A stretch of 9,251 nucleotides of DNA from the IMG/VR virus record IMGVR_UViG_2529293246_000005; one strand, 5' to 3'. Both the position numbers and the translations under genes were made by a program. The notes beneath the pieces are model-generated. The model saw only the letters and a program-made list of their open reading frames with translations, had not been told where the DNA came from and made no database searches. The stretch comes from a virus. Its lineage: Duplodnaviria; Heunggongvirae; Uroviricota; Caudoviricetes. Shown here in pieces: positions 2,621 through 8,518 of the stretch. Each line of letters starts with the position of its first letter. The stretch's first letter is position 1.

Positions 2621-2732
2621 AACTGAAGTTGCCCTGAAAATGAAATTTTTTTGCACAACCGCAGAACTTTTCCGCAGGGCATCAGTCTTAATTAGTGCCA
2701 CTGCTTTTCTTTGATGTCCCCATTTTGTGGAG

Positions 2733-2779
2733 CCCATCAACCCCGCCATTTCGGTTCAAGGTTGATGGGTTTTTTGTTG
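2733..2779 (+). terminator. Rho-independent terminator downstream of ybjL
   Basis: Perfect 10-bp stem CCCATCAACC (2733-2742) / GGTTGATGGG (2760-2769) with a 17-nt loop, followed by TTTTTTGTTG (2770-2779). Confidence 0.55.
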
Positions 2780-2855: not shown

Positions 2856-3074
2856 TCAAAGAGAGAGCGCCACCTGTCCTGATTTCATTGGATGCGGCTG
2901 AACCGGATTTGACTCTTTTGGCGTTGCAATCGAACGAACAAAAGTTTCATGGGTTACAAAAGTATGGCTGCAGTTAATATTCTGGCACTGGTTGTAACGC
3001 TCTTTGGTCAATGAAGATACCTGAAAACTGCTGCGAGTATGGGCGGCACTTCCACACAGTGGGCAAATCATCAT
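2856..3074 (-). CDS. ogr: Ogr/Delta-family zinc-finger late-gene transcriptional activator (phage 186 B / P2 Ogr homologue)
   Basis: Translation MMICPLCGSAAHTRSS...KERYNQCQNINCSHTF has the C-x2-C...C-x4-C zinc-finger spacing and resembles P2 Ogr. Position directly after gpD matches P2/186 order. Start chosen at ATG 3072-3074, with a GGGAGA SD upstream on the minus strand; the ORF track's longer 83-aa start is probably an extension. Confidence 0.85.
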   Translation of the reverse strand: MMICPLCGSAAHTRSSFQVSSLTKERYNQCQNINCSHTFVTHETFVRSIATPKESNPVQPHPMKSGQVALSL

Positions 3075-3164
3075 TTTTCGAGTTCTCCCCATTTTTGCTA
3101 AATTCACAATAATGATACCGCATTATTCCATTTTGCAAACTTAAAAGTTCTCCATTGCGAAGAA

Positions 3165-4265: not shown

Positions 4266-4747
4266 GACAGCAGCCCTCCCACCGTTTTACTGATATCGCT
4301 TAAGGCAGACGTTGCCGTATCCTGCAGATTATTCAGTTGCGCACTGAGATCACCGAACATATCGGACAGGGATTCATCCACTCGTTTGAGCGACAGGGTG
4401 AACTCAATCCGGCGCGGCATACCGTCGCGGAAAAACTCCGTTTTAGTCTGATTCAGTCCCTCAATCACATACATGCCGTAAATCGTGCCGCTGCCTTCAA
4501 TCAGGGGCCATGCTTTCCCCTGTTCTGCCATCTGCTCCAGTGCCAGCAACGACAGCCTGCCGCCTGTTATCTCCGGCATAAGAACACCGGAAAGCGTCAG
4601 CATGTCGTTGTCCGGTCCCAGAAACTGCGTGGACGGACGACGATTTACCCGGCTGTTAGCCACATGTCGCCAGCTGCGCTGATACTGCAGTTCCTGATAC
4701 GGCACGGTGCGCAGCATAAACACGTACAATCCCAGCACCATCATCAT
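4262..4747 (-). CDS. U: Phage tail protein U (P2 gpU-like)
   Basis: 161-aa ORF starting [10 protein letters not shown]..., resembling P2 gpU; translationally coupled (ATGA overlap) to the upstream tape-measure remnant and to the downstream D. Confidence 0.85.
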   Translation of the reverse strand: MMMVLGLYVFMLRTVPYQELQYQRSWRHVANSRVNRRPSTQFLGPDNDMLTLSGVLMPEITGGRLSLLALEQMAEQGKAWPLIEGSGTIYGMYVIEGLNQTKTEFFRDGMPRRIEFTLSLKRVDESLSDMFGDLSAQLNNLQDTATSALSDISKTVGGLLS

Positions 4748-6144
4748 GCGTCGTATCCCCCCTGATCGCTGTAGTTACTCCTGGCTTTTGCCTTCAGCCT
4801 GCGTTCACGTTCATCAAGCTGGCGGGCCACCTCCCGCGCAATATCCTGCGCACTTTGTCCTGGCTGTGTCTGGATGATGATCTGCGTCGGTGCTTCAATC
4901 CGGTAAATGGGCGGCACAGTAGCTGCACGACTCACCATCGCTTCACCGCCTTTTGCGGGAAGCGCCAAAGGATGCAACGGTGGAAGCTCTGCTGGCGCGG
5001 CAGCAACACCCATCATTCCGGCGACAACGGCAGCCAGTGCAGCTGTATTTCTCCGGCTGGTCACATTTGCCGGGCCGTTAACAATTTCCGGCCCGTTTTC
5101 ACCGACGATGCCAAACTGCCCGCGCGGGATATACCCGCCGCTGTCATACATCCCCGCAAAGCCATATCCCCATGATGGAAAACCACCCGATGGCATCATC
5201 ACTTTACCGTCTGCATTCACCGTCGCAGGTTGCTGACGCGTCACGCTTTCCGGCAGTTTTGCCTTTGCGGCCTCTTTACTGACAATGCCGAGCTTCTCCA
5301 GCAACCAGGAAACGCCGGATTTCAGGGAGTCCAGCGGATGCATGACCATATTCAGCCCTTCCGCCAGTGCCTCCCCGAATCGCCGCCCCATTGCCGCTGC
5401 GCTCTGCAGTTCGGCAGAGGTCGACTTAACGGGCGTCAGCAGATCAGTAAACCAGCCCCACAGCGCCTGCACTTTGTCGCCAATCCACTGGAACACGGGC
5501 TTAAGCGGTTCGAACGCTGCACTGATGGGACCTGCCGCCGCTTTGAATCCTTCCACCACGCCACCGAGAAATGCGGTGATGGGTTGCCAGTATTTCCAGA
5601 CAACCAGCGCCACGCCCGCCAGTGCAGTAACCACAAGACCTATCGGACTGAGCAGAGCACCTAACAGACCAGATATGGCATACAGGGCAACGCGCAGCAT
5701 CGCCAGTGGACCAGATGCCAGTACTCGCAGCACCGTGCCTGCGGCGGCCAGTCCACCGCGCAGTACCGCCAGAGGATTCATAAACATCACAGCAACAGCA
5801 CGTAAACCGGATACCGCACCTGCTGCAACACGTCCGATCTCTGCAGTTGCGCTCATGACGTAATGCGGCAGTTTCTCTTTTGCAACCTCATTAATCGGTA
5901 CACATGGCAGGCAGTGAATCTGTGCCAGAAAACCATCTACCAGCGTTGAATCTTCAGTCAGATCGGTAAGCAGCCAGATTTCTGGTGCGGTTAATAAATG
6001 AGGCTGAGCTGGGTTCAGCTTGTTCCGCAGAATCTGCACATTCATGCCTGCACGTTCTGCCAGTTGCACCAGATTGTGGCGCAGTGCAAATGCACGACAG
6101 GCTTCATCAAAATGTGGATGTTTGGAAACTTGGTAATCAAACAT
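4744..6144 (-). CDS. Chimeric ORF: phage 186 CII-like N-terminus (approx. first 100-115 aa) fused in frame to a tail tape-measure (gpT-like) C-terminal region; deletion scar, likely non-functional as either protein
   Basis: N-terminus [24 protein letters not shown]...[24 protein letters not shown] matches my recollection of the 186 CII (Phage_CII family) N-terminal domain. The remainder is Gly/Ala-rich with hydrophobic segments and ends in a basic tail ([21 protein letters not shown]), sitting immediately upstream of U and D where gpT belongs. Start set at ATG 6142-6144; the ORF track uses an upstream TTG. Confidence 0.72.
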
Positions 6145-6176
6145 GGTCAATGCCTCTGATGTATTTCAGAATCGAA

Positions 6177-6398
6177 CTAATTAAGGTTTAGATTGCATTC
6201 TGAAAGCGCATCAACGGTCATGGCTGCTATGTTGATCATCACTTTTTCGCGTTTTTTATCTTTGCGCAAACGGTGACGGATAAGGCGTCCATCAGCCAAC
6301 ATGTCATTGATGGTATCGATGGACAGTCCTGTCAGCTCGCTATAGCGTTCAATAGTCACATGAGGCGTGGTAAGAGTGATTGAAATGTTAGGTCTCAT
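6177..6398 (-). CDS. apl: Apl/Cox-like small DNA-binding protein (excisionase / lytic-switch repressor-type)
   Basis: 73-aa ORF directly upstream of the cII-like gene and divergent from cI, the 186 apl position. Translation ([35 protein letters not shown]) has an HTH-like segment resembling Apl/Cox-family proteins. GAGGA SD about 10 nt upstream. Confidence 0.65.
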
Positions 6399-6523
6399 GA
6401 TGCAACATTCCTCGTTTAATGATGATTAATCAGGACGAATACGGATCGTTTGTATTTTGTGAACACCATAAACATACGATCGCACTATGAAATCGTCAAG
6501 ATAAAAGTTCACTTGGAGTGACC
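6399..6523. promoter_or_regulatory. Immunity switch region between divergent apl and cI (predicted lytic and lysogenic promoters and operator sites)
   Basis: 125-bp AT-rich divergent intergenic region. It contains a 10-bp inverted repeat with one mismatch, GATCGTTTGT (6444-6453) / ACATACGATC (6472-6481), and a TTAAT-gatg-ATTAA palindrome-like element (6416-6429). Confidence 0.5.
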
Positions 6524-7093
6524 ATGAATTTGGAGAAAGGCGGACGAGGCGCTATAGAGCGCATGGTAGAAGCTTATGGATTCAAAACTCGACAGGCGTT
6601 GTGCGATCATTTAGGAATCTCTAAAAGTACACTCGCTACACGCTACATGCGTGACTCATTCCCAGCAGAATGGGTAATCCAGTGCGCCCTTGAAACGGGC
6701 ACCTCGCTTAATTGGCTCACAACTGGACATGGTTCAAAGCAAACTTCAGGTAATACAAATACGATGGAAGTTGCTAAATATGTATTATCTGATGGTGCCT
6801 TGCGTGAAGACGGTTTTTATATTTTTGATAAGGAATTTCTACCCTCTACGTTTAAAAAACCTTTTGTCATCACAGATAACAATTCTGAATTTATTTGTGA
6901 TAAAGAATTTGATGATATACGTGATGGTAAATGGGTAATAAGTATTGATGGCGAAATAACAATCCGCGACATTACTCGTTTACCCGGTGGAAGAATCTTC
7001 GTTGAAGGTGGAAACAGATCCTTCGAGTGCAAGATAGAAGATGTTGAAATAATTGGAAAAATTATAAGTTTAACAATTAAGTACGTTAGGTAA
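6524..7093 (+). CDS. cI: Phage 186-type CI immunity repressor
   Basis: Translation (IERMVEAYGFKTRQALCDHLGISKSTLATRY...CALETGTSLNWLTTGHG...ITIRDITRLPGG...FECKIEDVEIIGKI) resembles 186 CI, with an N-terminal HTH and a C-terminal oligomerisation domain. Start chosen at ATG 6524 with GGAG 5 nt upstream; the ORF track starts at GTG 6518. Confidence 0.85.
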   Translation: MNLEKGGRGAIERMVEAYGFKTRQALCDHLGISKSTLATRYMRDSFPAEWVIQCALETGTSLNWLTTGHGSKQTSGNTNTMEVAKYVLSDGALREDGFYIFDKEFLPSTFKKPFVITDNNSEFICDKEFDDIRDGKWVISIDGEITIRDITRLPGGRIFVEGGNRSFECKIEDVEIIGKIISLTIKYVR

Positions 7094-7108
7094 TACCGGG
7101 AGGAAACT

Positions 7109-7300
7109 ATGCTTGGTAAGGTATTTTTTGTGGTTTTATCATGTTCTTTGTTATTAAACCCACTAACTACCTATGCTAAAAATTATCCTTGTTCTGGGAA
7201 AAAGGGAGGTGTCTCTCACTGTACCTCCGATGGAAAGTTCGTTTGCAATGATGGAACTATTAGTAAATCAAAAAAAATCTGTACTAAAAACTCGCGATAA
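7109..7300 (+). CDS. Small secreted cysteine-rich protein of unknown function (putative moron)
   Basis: 63-aa ORF with a strong SD (GGGAGG, 5-nt spacer) only 15 nt after the cI stop. The N-terminus [23 protein letters not shown] looks like a type I signal peptide. The predicted mature part is about 40 aa, Lys-rich, with four Cys. Visibly AT-rich relative to flanking phage genes. Confidence 0.6.
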
Positions 7301-7486
7301 TTTTTGCTTTTATATCTGCGCCTAATATAACAATGAGCCGCAGGCTAACCGCAAAAGTCACATACTCACATAGCAAAAAATAGCCAACTTCATTATGGCT
7401 TCAGTGAGATGTATGGTCGCAAGATTTCATACATTGACACTGGTTATACATACAGTAAAAATGCTCTCTATTGGAGGGCATTTTTT

Positions 7487-8518
7487 ATGGCAGTACGAAA
7501 ACTCACCACAGGAAAATGGCTTTGCGAATGTTACCCCGCCGGACGTAGTGGGCGTCGTGTGCGTAAACAATTCGCCACCAAAGGCGAAGCACTGGCTTTT
7601 GAGCGTCACACGATGGAAGAAACCGAAGCAAAGCCCTGGCTGGGCGAATCAGTAGATCGTCGAACCCTGAAAGACGTGGTTGAGCTATGGTTCAAACTAC
7701 ATGGTAAATCTCTGACTGCTGGGCAGCATGTCTATGACAAATTGCTGCTGATGGTTGACGCTCTGGGCAATCCCCTTGCAACCGATCTCACATCTAAAAT
7801 GTTTGCCCATTATCGAGATAAACGACTGACAGGTGAGATCTACTTCAGCGAGAAATGGAAGAAAGGGGCCAGCCCGGTCACCATTAACCTGGAGCAAAGC
7901 TATCTAAGTAGTGTTTTTAGCGAACTATCCCGCCTGGGCGAATGGTCGTATCCAAACCCACTGGAGAACATGCGAAAATTCACCATCGCAGAAAAAGAGA
8001 TGGCATGGCTTACCCATGAGCAGATTGTTGAACTGCTGGATGATTGCAAACGTCAGGACCCAATTCTGGCACTGGTAGTCAAGATATGCTTAAGCACAGG
8101 CGCACGCTGGCGAGAAGCAATAAACCTTACCCGATCACAGGTGACCAAATACCGAATTACCTTTGTAAGAACGAAGGGGAAGAAAAACAGAAGCATCCCT
8201 ATCAGTAAAGAGCTTTATGAAGAGATCATGGCGCTTGATGGGTTCAATTTCTTCACAGACTGCTATTTTCAATTTTTATCCGTGATGGAAAAAACGTCTA
8301 TCGTGCTCCCTCGCGGTCAACTTACACACGTTCTGCGTCATACGTTTGCGGCGCATTTCATGATGTCGGGTGGAAACATCCTTGCTTTGCAAAAAATCCT
8401 CGGACATCACGACATTAAAATGACTATGCGTTATGCTCATCTATCACCTGATCACTTAGAGACAGCTCTTCGTTTCAATCCACTAGCAACTTTGGATGTT
8501 ACTAAATCAGATTCTTAA
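7487..8518 (+). CDS. int: Tyrosine site-specific integrase (P2/186 Int family)
   Basis: Translation from MAVRKLTTGKWLCECYPAGRSGRRVRKQF resembles P2 Int. Catalytic signature present: STGARWREA (Arg), HVLRHTFA (H-x-x-R), MRYAHL (Tyr nucleophile). Start at ATG 7487 with a GGAGGG SD; the ORF track's start at 7409 is an upstream extension. Confidence 0.9.
   Translation: MAVRKLTTGKWLCECYPAGRSGRRVRKQFATKGEALAFERHTMEETEAKPWLGESVDRRTLKDVVELWFKLHGKSLTAGQHVYDKLLLMVDALGNPLATDLTSKMFAHYRDKRLTGEIYFSEKWKKGASPVTINLEQSYLSSVFSELSRLGEWSYPNPLENMRKFTIAEKEMAWLTHEQIVELLDDCKRQDPILALVVKICLSTGARWREAINLTRSQVTKYRITFVRTKGKKNRSIPISKELYEEIMALDGFNFFTDCYFQFLSVMEKTSIVLPRGQLTHVLRHTFAAHFMMSGGNILALQKILGHHDIKMTMRYAHLSPDHLETALRFNPLATLDVTKSDS

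Follow-up and report, generated by a model that had tools for sequence, protein, structure and literature searches.

The stretch of DNA analysed here, referred to as the window, is the 9,251-nucleotide (nt) IMG/VR virus record IMGVR_UViG_2529293246_000005, a piece of Escherichia coli chromosome that carries a deleted, defective prophage related to phage 186. This study focused on a small open reading frame (ORF) of 63 amino acids (aa) situated between the genes for the repressor cI and the integrase int (Table 1). Its product is a member of the YdcA family, predicted to be exported and to be made together with the repressor in lysogens. That the gene is real, that its family has been correctly identified and that it is placed within the repressor unit can all be stated with great confidence.

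The YdcA-family gene and its product

The gap between the end of the cI stop codon (7093) and the ATG of the ORF is exactly 15 nt and contains a Shine-Dalgarno (SD) sequence, GGGAGG. On a heuristic reading the N-terminus resembles a Sec signal peptide, with a lysine at position 4, a hydrophobic stretch from V5 to L16, followed by N17-P18 and, at positions -3 to -1, T-Y-A. Eight lysines and one arginine against two aspartates give the predicted mature part a net charge of +7, and its cysteines at positions 28, 38, 46 and 58 are spaced C-x9-C-x7-C-x11-C; an AlphaFold2 model of this domain gave a mean confidence (pLDDT) of 80.6. A fifth cysteine, C12, lies inside the signal peptide and is not conserved. 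A lipoprotein reading was rejected on this account, and also because C12 is too near the N-terminus and has K4 within the six residues before it.

An earlier note on this DNA had described the ORF, the 15-nt gap, the SD sequence, the lysine-rich mature part of about 40 residues and the four-cysteine spacing, all of which were confirmed from the sequence, but it did not recognise that the protein belongs to a known family. Its description of the ORF as translationally linked to cI is too strong, since the gene has its own ribosome-binding site after the gap, and co-transcription is the sounder reading. The note had also taken the AT-rich composition as an argument for a moron. The guanine plus cytosine (GC) content of the ORF is 34.4%, but that of the C-terminal half of cI is 33.3% and that of the spacer at 7301–7486 is 37.1%, compared to 46.5% in int and 54% in the late genes. 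The AT-rich block is the whole stretch from about 6700 to 7430, including the ORF, and so composition does not single it out.

The protein scored 116.1 bits against NCBIfam NF007463 (PRK10040.1-2; cut-off 93), covering profile positions 1–58 of 58, which places it in the YdcA family. It also matched phrog_6000 (117 bits), a PHROG of unknown function, and Pfam PF27300 ('YdcA') is precomputed for 58 of 64 homologues. All invariant columns of the family alignment are present, including the four cysteines and the PCSG-KGG / F-x-C-x-x-G-x-x-S-x-S core. The exact protein sequence occurs on at least 1000 contigs, and RefSeq names WP_001321204.1 either 'YdcA family protein' or 'hypothetical protein'. 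The element is, then, already catalogued as a known and annotated family member and has no novelty as such; a literature search found no paper giving a function for this family member. A local copy of Pfam, without PF27300, returned only a sub-threshold match similar to GULLO2 (13 bits), which was taken as noise, and a match to lpg1681_fam at E 0.11 was disregarded. Among the PADLOC defence models, no family matched the protein at E<=0.01. Two names were set aside as misleading. The UniRef name 'Conjugal transfer protein' was treated as a mis-annotation, since 58 plasmid records, mostly of Acinetobacter and Rhizobium, showed no evident association with conjugation genes, and the gene called 'ydcA' in the gonococcal genetic island and on plasmids has nothing but the name in common.

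YdcA of E. coli K-12 (b1419) has the same layout, a domain of about 36–40 aa behind a signal peptide, with the motif PCSG-KGG-x-x-C...F-x-C-x-D-G-x-x-S-x-S-K-K-x-C, but its gene adjoins rydC/cybB, whereas the gene in the window lies in a prophage lysogeny unit. Against NF007462, the equivalog model for K-12 YdcA, the window protein scored 68 bits, below the cut-off of 118, and it is for this reason regarded as a paralogue and not an orthologue of the K-12 protein.

Synonymous and non-synonymous changes, counted by the Nei-Gojobori method, reveal strong constraint on the mature part. Between the window and the locus L088, a variant found in Escherichia and Citrobacter, the mature part has 18 synonymous and 3 non-synonymous differences (proportions per site, pS 0.77 and pN 0.03), compared to a pS of 0.76 and a pN of 0.52 in the signal-peptide part. 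The same pattern was seen against the copies of Klebsiella, Yersinia, Buttiauxella and a Haemophilus phage. Of the 16 sites that segregate among 80 near-identical IMG/VR contigs, 14 are synonymous and two are replacements (V5I and K24R). The first 22 residues show no conservation in the family alignment, an alanine precedes the cleavage site in at least 90% of members, and the mature part is near invariant, with P, C, S, G, G, C, F, C, G, S, S and C invariant in 38 diverse domains. An overlapping ORF in another frame (7173–7325, 50 aa) was rejected, the substitution pattern fitting the frame that starts at 7109.

Because synonymous changes dominate, the possibility of a spurious ORF in an AT-rich spacer can in practice be dismissed. 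It would be in keeping with the short length and AT-rich composition, and with the lack of annotation in the records of Haemophilus phages HP2/S2 and of some other phages, but it conflicts with the two sets of substitution counts, the score above a curated cut-off, the strong ribosome-binding site, and the 454 cluster representatives found at E<=1e-3 across alpha-, beta- and gamma-proteobacteria. The substitution pattern is what an exported protein should show if its function resides in the mature part. Selection acts on the mature part only, and the divergent, hydrophobic N-termini of the homologues all lead to an alanine before the domain, so the earlier claim of a genuine exported small protein appears well founded. 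Export and the formation of disulfides are both considered highly likely from these features.

Linkage to the repressor and distribution

Homologues, for which the earlier note had suggested a search, were found, and they recur directly after cI in related prophages. All 80 IMG/VR loci have the cI stop codon 15 nt ahead of the ATG, and 78 of them have int downstream. Of 5426 complete E. coli genomes, 747 contain the module at 6400–7500, nearly full length in 592, and the cI-YdcA module occurs in at least 535 IMG/VR viral contigs; within the phage collection, no isolated enterobacterial phage was found to carry the module at 6400–7500. Intact prophages with the same order of cI, small ORF and int exist. 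Variants in Escherichia, Citrobacter and Klebsiella, with a cI about 71% identical, have the order cI-YdcA-KAP NTPase-int, and Yersinia prophages, with a cI 35% identical, have cI-YdcA-int. An unannotated 60-aa homologue is present in the Haemophilus phages HP2/S2 (NC_003315, complement of 2486–2668; phrog_6000, 81 bits), with its ATG overlapping the cI stop codon. It occupies the same position, upstream of further cargo and int, and its mature part is about 68% identical, compared to 33% for cI and 49% for Int. The next gene in HP2, orf1(S) (L002, 3112–3876; 254 aa), specifies a protein with an N-terminus resembling a signal peptide and a match to the superinfection-exclusion Sie-like phrog_8545 (8.6e-9).

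Mature-peptide identities of about 92%, 80% and 68% fall in the same order as the cI identities of 71%, 35% and 33%, and this parallel fall fits two genes that have long resided together; separate insertions into one site could be an alternative explanation. Among 77 species-level loci, the commonest upstream neighbour family is Phage_CI_repr (nine loci), and the other neighbours are heterogeneous, including chromosomal genes, phage tail genes, Mu Gam and the P22 antirepressor. In phages of Moraxella and Acinetobacter the YdcA gene lies in the late region, and Moraxellaceae have a chromosomal copy between hom and cysS.

The gene is absent from this slot in phages 186 and ESSI2_ev129, and Klebsiella phage 4LV2017 has other cargo there. 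According to the earlier note, canonical 186/P2 lacks such a gene between the repressor and int, and for 186 this is indeed the case, the cI stop codon of NC_001317 overlapping the start of int. Such presence and absence at the same position among related phages is what is looked for in a moron; a promoter and terminator of its own, another mark of a moron, were not found, the one terminator-like element downstream being the hairpin at 7457–7486, and the ORF presumably rides on the cI transcript. No promoter-like site is seen in the 15-nt gap, which has no room for a promoter or terminator, and this also argues for transcription with cI. The description of the gene as accessory cargo of the repressor unit, outside the canonical 186/P2 set, holds up well, as it recurs after cI genes of the 186 type and is missing from 186, ESSI2_ev129 and 4LV2017.

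In phage 186 the lysogenic operon is annotated as cI-int-orf69, transcribed from pL/pE, and orf69 is downstream of int. The rexA and rexB genes of lambda are accessory genes co-transcribed with the repressor, and old, tin and fun(Z) are lysogenic-conversion genes of P2. By analogy with rexAB, the YdcA ORF, directly downstream of cI and in the same orientation, may be non-essential cargo expressed in the lysogen. The proteins of rexAB, orf69 and old/tin/fun(Z) are located in the cytoplasm or membrane and have known exclusion phenotypes, whereas the YdcA protein is predicted to be a tiny exported domain and shows much greater conservation between hosts.

Judging from the gene contents compared here, the repressor-int slot is evidently a cargo hotspot. 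The KAP-family NTPase found between the YdcA gene and int in some variants (443 aa; 5198–6529 in both L088 and L092) strongly matches the PADLOC candidate system PDC-S20 (1.3e-171), and Klebsiella loci carry SocA_Panacea downstream of int. A dedicated superinfection-exclusion factor could be proposed for such a setting, a periplasmic peptide that blocks adsorption or DNA injection by, for example, masking a receptor or inhibiting a tail enzyme. The location in the lysogenic unit, the defence-like genes in the same slot of relatives (the KAP NTPase and the Sie-like protein of HP2) and the occurrence of the gene as a floating moron in the late region of Moraxella and Acinetobacter phages would all suit this idea. 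It is nevertheless judged unlikely, as a mature peptide that is near invariant across three proteobacterial classes, and that is also encoded on chromosomes among housekeeping genes, is unlike the outcome of an arms race with phage proteins, and the PADLOC models gave no match.

The prophage remnant and the region upstream of int

Table 1. Features of the window, with coordinates in nucleotides from its first letter
Feature	Position	Strand	Remarks
Host genes grxA, ybjM, ybjL			in that order, then rybB
rybB, small RNA (sRNA) gene	2700-2778	+	Rfam RF00110, 105 bits
ogr	2856-3107	-	
468-aa in-frame fusion ORF	4744-6150	-	residues 12-113 match CII domain (Phage_CP76)
apl/cox-like excisionase-repressor gene	6177-6398	-	divergent from cI; position as 186 apl
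cI, repressor gene	6524-7093	+	RefSeq start; mechanical ORF starts at GTG 6518
SD sequence GGGAGG	7098-7103	+	5 nt before the ATG of the YdcA ORF; read from sequence
YdcA-family ORF, 63 aa + stop	7109-7300	+	identical to RefSeq WP_001321204.1
Predicted Sec signal peptide, residues 1-23	7109-7177	+	cleavage after T-Y-A; sequence features
Predicted mature domain, residues 24-63 (40 aa)	7178-7297	+	four invariant Cys
AT-rich non-coding spacer	7301-7456	+	37% GC
Promoter-like TTGACA-17-AAAAAT, upstream of int	7434-7462	+	promoter scan, 10/12 matches
LexA-box-like CTGG-N8-ACAG	7440-7455	+	inside the promoter-like site
13-bp hairpin + U-run	7457-7486	+	-18.5 kcal/mol, z -4.4; 3' arm holds int SD
int, tyrosine integrase gene	7487-8518	+	Pfam Int_N + Phage_integrase; 55% identical to 186 Int
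AT-rich ORF (28-38% GC), >251 aa	8496->9251	+	runs off window edge; overlaps int 3' end by 23 nt

The genes for gpD and gpU are also on the minus strand, between ogr and the 468-aa fusion ORF. Beyond its CII part the fusion has no Pfam match at a threshold of 1e-4, and in related genomes the RefSeq features of the corresponding region include 'phage tail tape measure protein'. In strain LR-27 there is a similar remnant, with an identical small protein and a 420-aa counterpart of the fusion that is annotated only as a CII family protein. From the CII fusion, and from the tape measure genes annotated in the corresponding region of related genomes, the prophage can be recognised as a deletion remnant without replication genes and most late genes. 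The product of the apl/cox-like gene is 100% identical to that of a 73-aa gene in intact prophages and has a weak match to TIGR01764; cI is named 'phage repressor protein CI' in RefSeq and matches Pfam Phage_CI_repr (2.8e-33) and Phage_CI_C (9.5e-29). At its ogr end the prophage directly adjoins the rybB gene, and as a whole it lies between ybjL/rybB and rcdA; given this location the attachment site is probably at the 3' end of rybB.

The incomplete ORF downstream of int matches phrog_21382 and has weak similarities to HEPN (RiboL-PSP), Abi_2 and an 'abortive infection' PHROG. It is probably defence cargo, at the position of 186 orf69; in other strains an 89-aa gene is found in its place.

Between the YdcA ORF and int, no Rfam match was found in 7094–7486, and the fold of the spacer at 7296–7400 was no better than that of shuffled sequences (z -1.6); no feature was recognised in the spacer before about 7434. 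There is a mosaic junction at about 7429. Beyond it the int module is 95% identical to Klebsiella phage 4LV2017, and on its upstream side there is no similarity; 4LV2017 has a different repressor, and a 349-aa hypothetical gene occupies its slot. The LexA-like box within the promoter-like site is a perfect CTGT-N8-ACAG in L088, ESSI2_ev129 and the Yersinia locus L012, and is absent in phage 186. The hairpin that follows shows compensatory changes between loci and was not flagged by the consensus terminator scan; it looks like a candidate terminator, or an element that occludes the ribosome-binding site of int, separating cI-ydcA from int. A reasonable reading is that cI-ydcA transcripts may either stop at the hairpin or be unable to translate int, which would have its own SOS-controlled start. 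On this reading, cI-ydcA would be a two-gene unit.

The YdcA domain, Dis2 and possible roles in the lysogen

Domain architectures were counted in the best 149 of the 454 cluster representatives. The domain starts 20–39 residues from the N-terminus in 106 of these, two or three tandem copies are present in five, a C-terminal CxC...CxGPRGGxYC extension with a marginal PF08789 match is found in 15, and there are other long extensions in 21. Five of these 21 are fusions to nucleases, namely Endonuclease_NS (P0185, P0161 and P0193), SNase (P0115) and a PLD-type domain (P0183), and one more, P0100, is a fusion to a VasL-like domain. The fused YdcA domain is placed after the signal peptide. Independent fusions of a small, basic domain to three unrelated families of secreted nucleases suggest that it serves in substrate binding or in tethering the enzyme to the envelope.

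The best match of the family profile in the PDB was Dis2 (Lpg0823; chain AN of 7MUC/7MUD) of the Legionella Dot/Icm system, which was at the top of hmmsearch results both with the full profile (E 2.9e-4) and with the mature part only (E 6.1e-3). Comparison with Legionella Dis2-like proteins by hhalign gave a probability of 78% over 21 columns, a Legionella Dis2-like protein carries PF27300, and Foldseek returned Dis2 as the top match for both models, with probabilities of 0.80–0.94. Both lobes of Dis2 align to the core C-x-K-x-GG-[VI]-x-x-C-x(3-5)-G-x-[FL]-V-C-N-[DN]-G-x-x-S. Matches to low-density lipoprotein (LDL) receptor class A, hepsin and lysozyme (E 0.014–0.6) were rejected; they covered only C-x-F-x-C-x-x-G and were judged to reflect cysteine spacing or composition, and Foldseek gives them no support. 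Homology between the YdcA domain and the Dis2 lobes is considered probable, and Dis2 appears to be built of two lobes of the YdcA type.

Dis2 lies on the outer-membrane-facing surface of the cap, touching DotK, DotC and DotD (PMC8486379; PMC12716638), and its two similar lobes are pinned by five disulfides with clear density (PMC8486379). It has been described as without structural neighbours (PMC8486379; PMC12716638), and as dispensable and specific to Legionellales (PMC12716638). Dis2 is periplasmic and disulfide-stabilised, as is predicted for the window protein. It differs in being a two-lobe, ten-cysteine structural subunit of Legionella, bound to DotC, DotD and DotK, that is not lysine-rich, whereas a single four-cysteine domain makes up the window protein, which comes from a prophage without secretion-system genes; the two lobes, five disulfides and Dot/Icm genome that characterise Dis2 are not found here.

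The cysteines could in principle serve another purpose, the binding of periplasmic zinc or copper together with the histidine of the 'SHC' motif. The four cysteines are invariant and His37 is kept in at least 90% of close homologues, but distant members have K, R, Q, Y, A or S in its place with the cysteines still invariant, and disulfides are favoured for this reason. The oxidising periplasm and the disulfides of Dis2 also speak against metal binding, which has very little chance of being correct. A secreted cationic antimicrobial or toxin-like peptide, similar to a defensin or bacteriocin and harming competitors, fares hardly better. Small size, a charge of +7 and four cysteines would suit such a peptide, and in Pseudomonas protegens a YdcA-family gene is among those with a statistical link to antimicrobial activity (PMC13541209), but a Sec signal peptide takes its protein no further than the periplasm, no immunity or export gene is adjacent in the contexts examined, chromosomal copies are single and lie among housekeeping genes, and the same domain is a structural lobe in Dis2.

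The best explanation for the gene, and one with an even chance of being correct, would be a binding module of the periplasm that is stabilised by disulfides and produced alongside the repressor in lysogens. Given the gene order, the 15-nt gap and the operon model of 186, the ORF would be transcribed with cI from the lysogenic promoter(s) and its product made whenever repressor is made, also in a defective remnant that keeps cI. The precursor would be exported by Sec and cleaved after Ala23, and the 40-aa product would adopt a small beta-hairpin fold in the periplasm, held in place by two disulfides, as the four invariant cysteines and the disulfide-pinned lobes of Dis2 suggest. The domain may be a generic extracytoplasmic binding module. 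Being very basic, with a sequence that hardly changes between alpha- and gamma-proteobacteria, it would most likely recognise a conserved polyanionic ligand and not a rapidly evolving phage protein; the best guess would be a nucleic acid or some other polymer with phosphate groups, or else a partner on the inward-facing side of the outer membrane. For the lysogen it could be a constitutive periplasmic accessory factor that either hampers incoming DNA or conditions the envelope. Both this ligand and this benefit are put forward tentatively, and are doubtful; what the lysogen gains is a guess.

Several observations weigh against this binding-module explanation. The few nuclease fusions could equally mean envelope anchoring instead of DNA binding, the defence models of PADLOC are silent, and Dis2, being dispensable and without known function, gives at best a location. 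The hairpin and U-run are only 157 nt downstream of the ORF and, with no promoter of its own found, expression would hang wholly on read-through from cI. The sole phenotype of the family, the 3-hydroxypropionate sensitivity of a ydcA deletion in E. coli W (PMC7642389), points to stress tolerance and not to DNA. This leads to a further alternative, that the protein is a host-fitness factor for envelope, acid or stationary-phase stress, as chromosomal YdcA may be, with the prophage providing an extra, constitutive copy. The sensitivity was seen at 300 mM, and the same study cites acid induction via YdcI (PMC7642389); a constitutive promoter site of the RpoS type is present in the rydC/ydcA spacer (PMC5493296), ydcA is up at the transition to late growth (bioRxiv 10.1101/310961), and deleted prophage remnants in at least two strains keep the gene intact. 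However, the window protein is a paralogue of K-12 YdcA (NF007462), the phenotypes, each from a single study, are indirect, and the nuclease fusions would be left unexplained, so that the host-fitness role has no better prospects than superinfection exclusion.

A more far-reaching extension of the binding-module explanation could be speculated. The YdcA domain would be an unrecognised, basic two-disulfide mini-domain that binds nucleic acid or another polyanion with phosphate groups on the periplasmic side of the outer membrane; bacteria would have attached it to secreted nucleases; Legionella would have duplicated it and co-opted it as Dis2 of the Dot/Icm system; and temperate phages of several families would express a free copy with the repressor, as a constitutive periplasmic barrier to superinfecting, transforming and conjugating DNA. 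That all four parts hold together is improbable.

The cI-YdcA module is carried by about one in eight complete E. coli genomes, and deleted remnants keep the YdcA gene intact. This prevalence and persistence, together with the strong purifying selection, indicate that lysogens very probably make the peptide all the time. Its homologue is missing from the HP2 and S2 records, an annotation gap, and relatives of Dis2 outside the Legionellales would differ from the published description (PMC12716638). For an uncharacterised family, the nuclease fusions and the probable homology to Dis2 provide a first testable hypothesis, that of a binding module located near the outer membrane. The remaining interest of the element is in a very common peptide that is probably expressed in lysogens and predicted to be exported, and in the two new leads offered by the nuclease fusions and Dis2.

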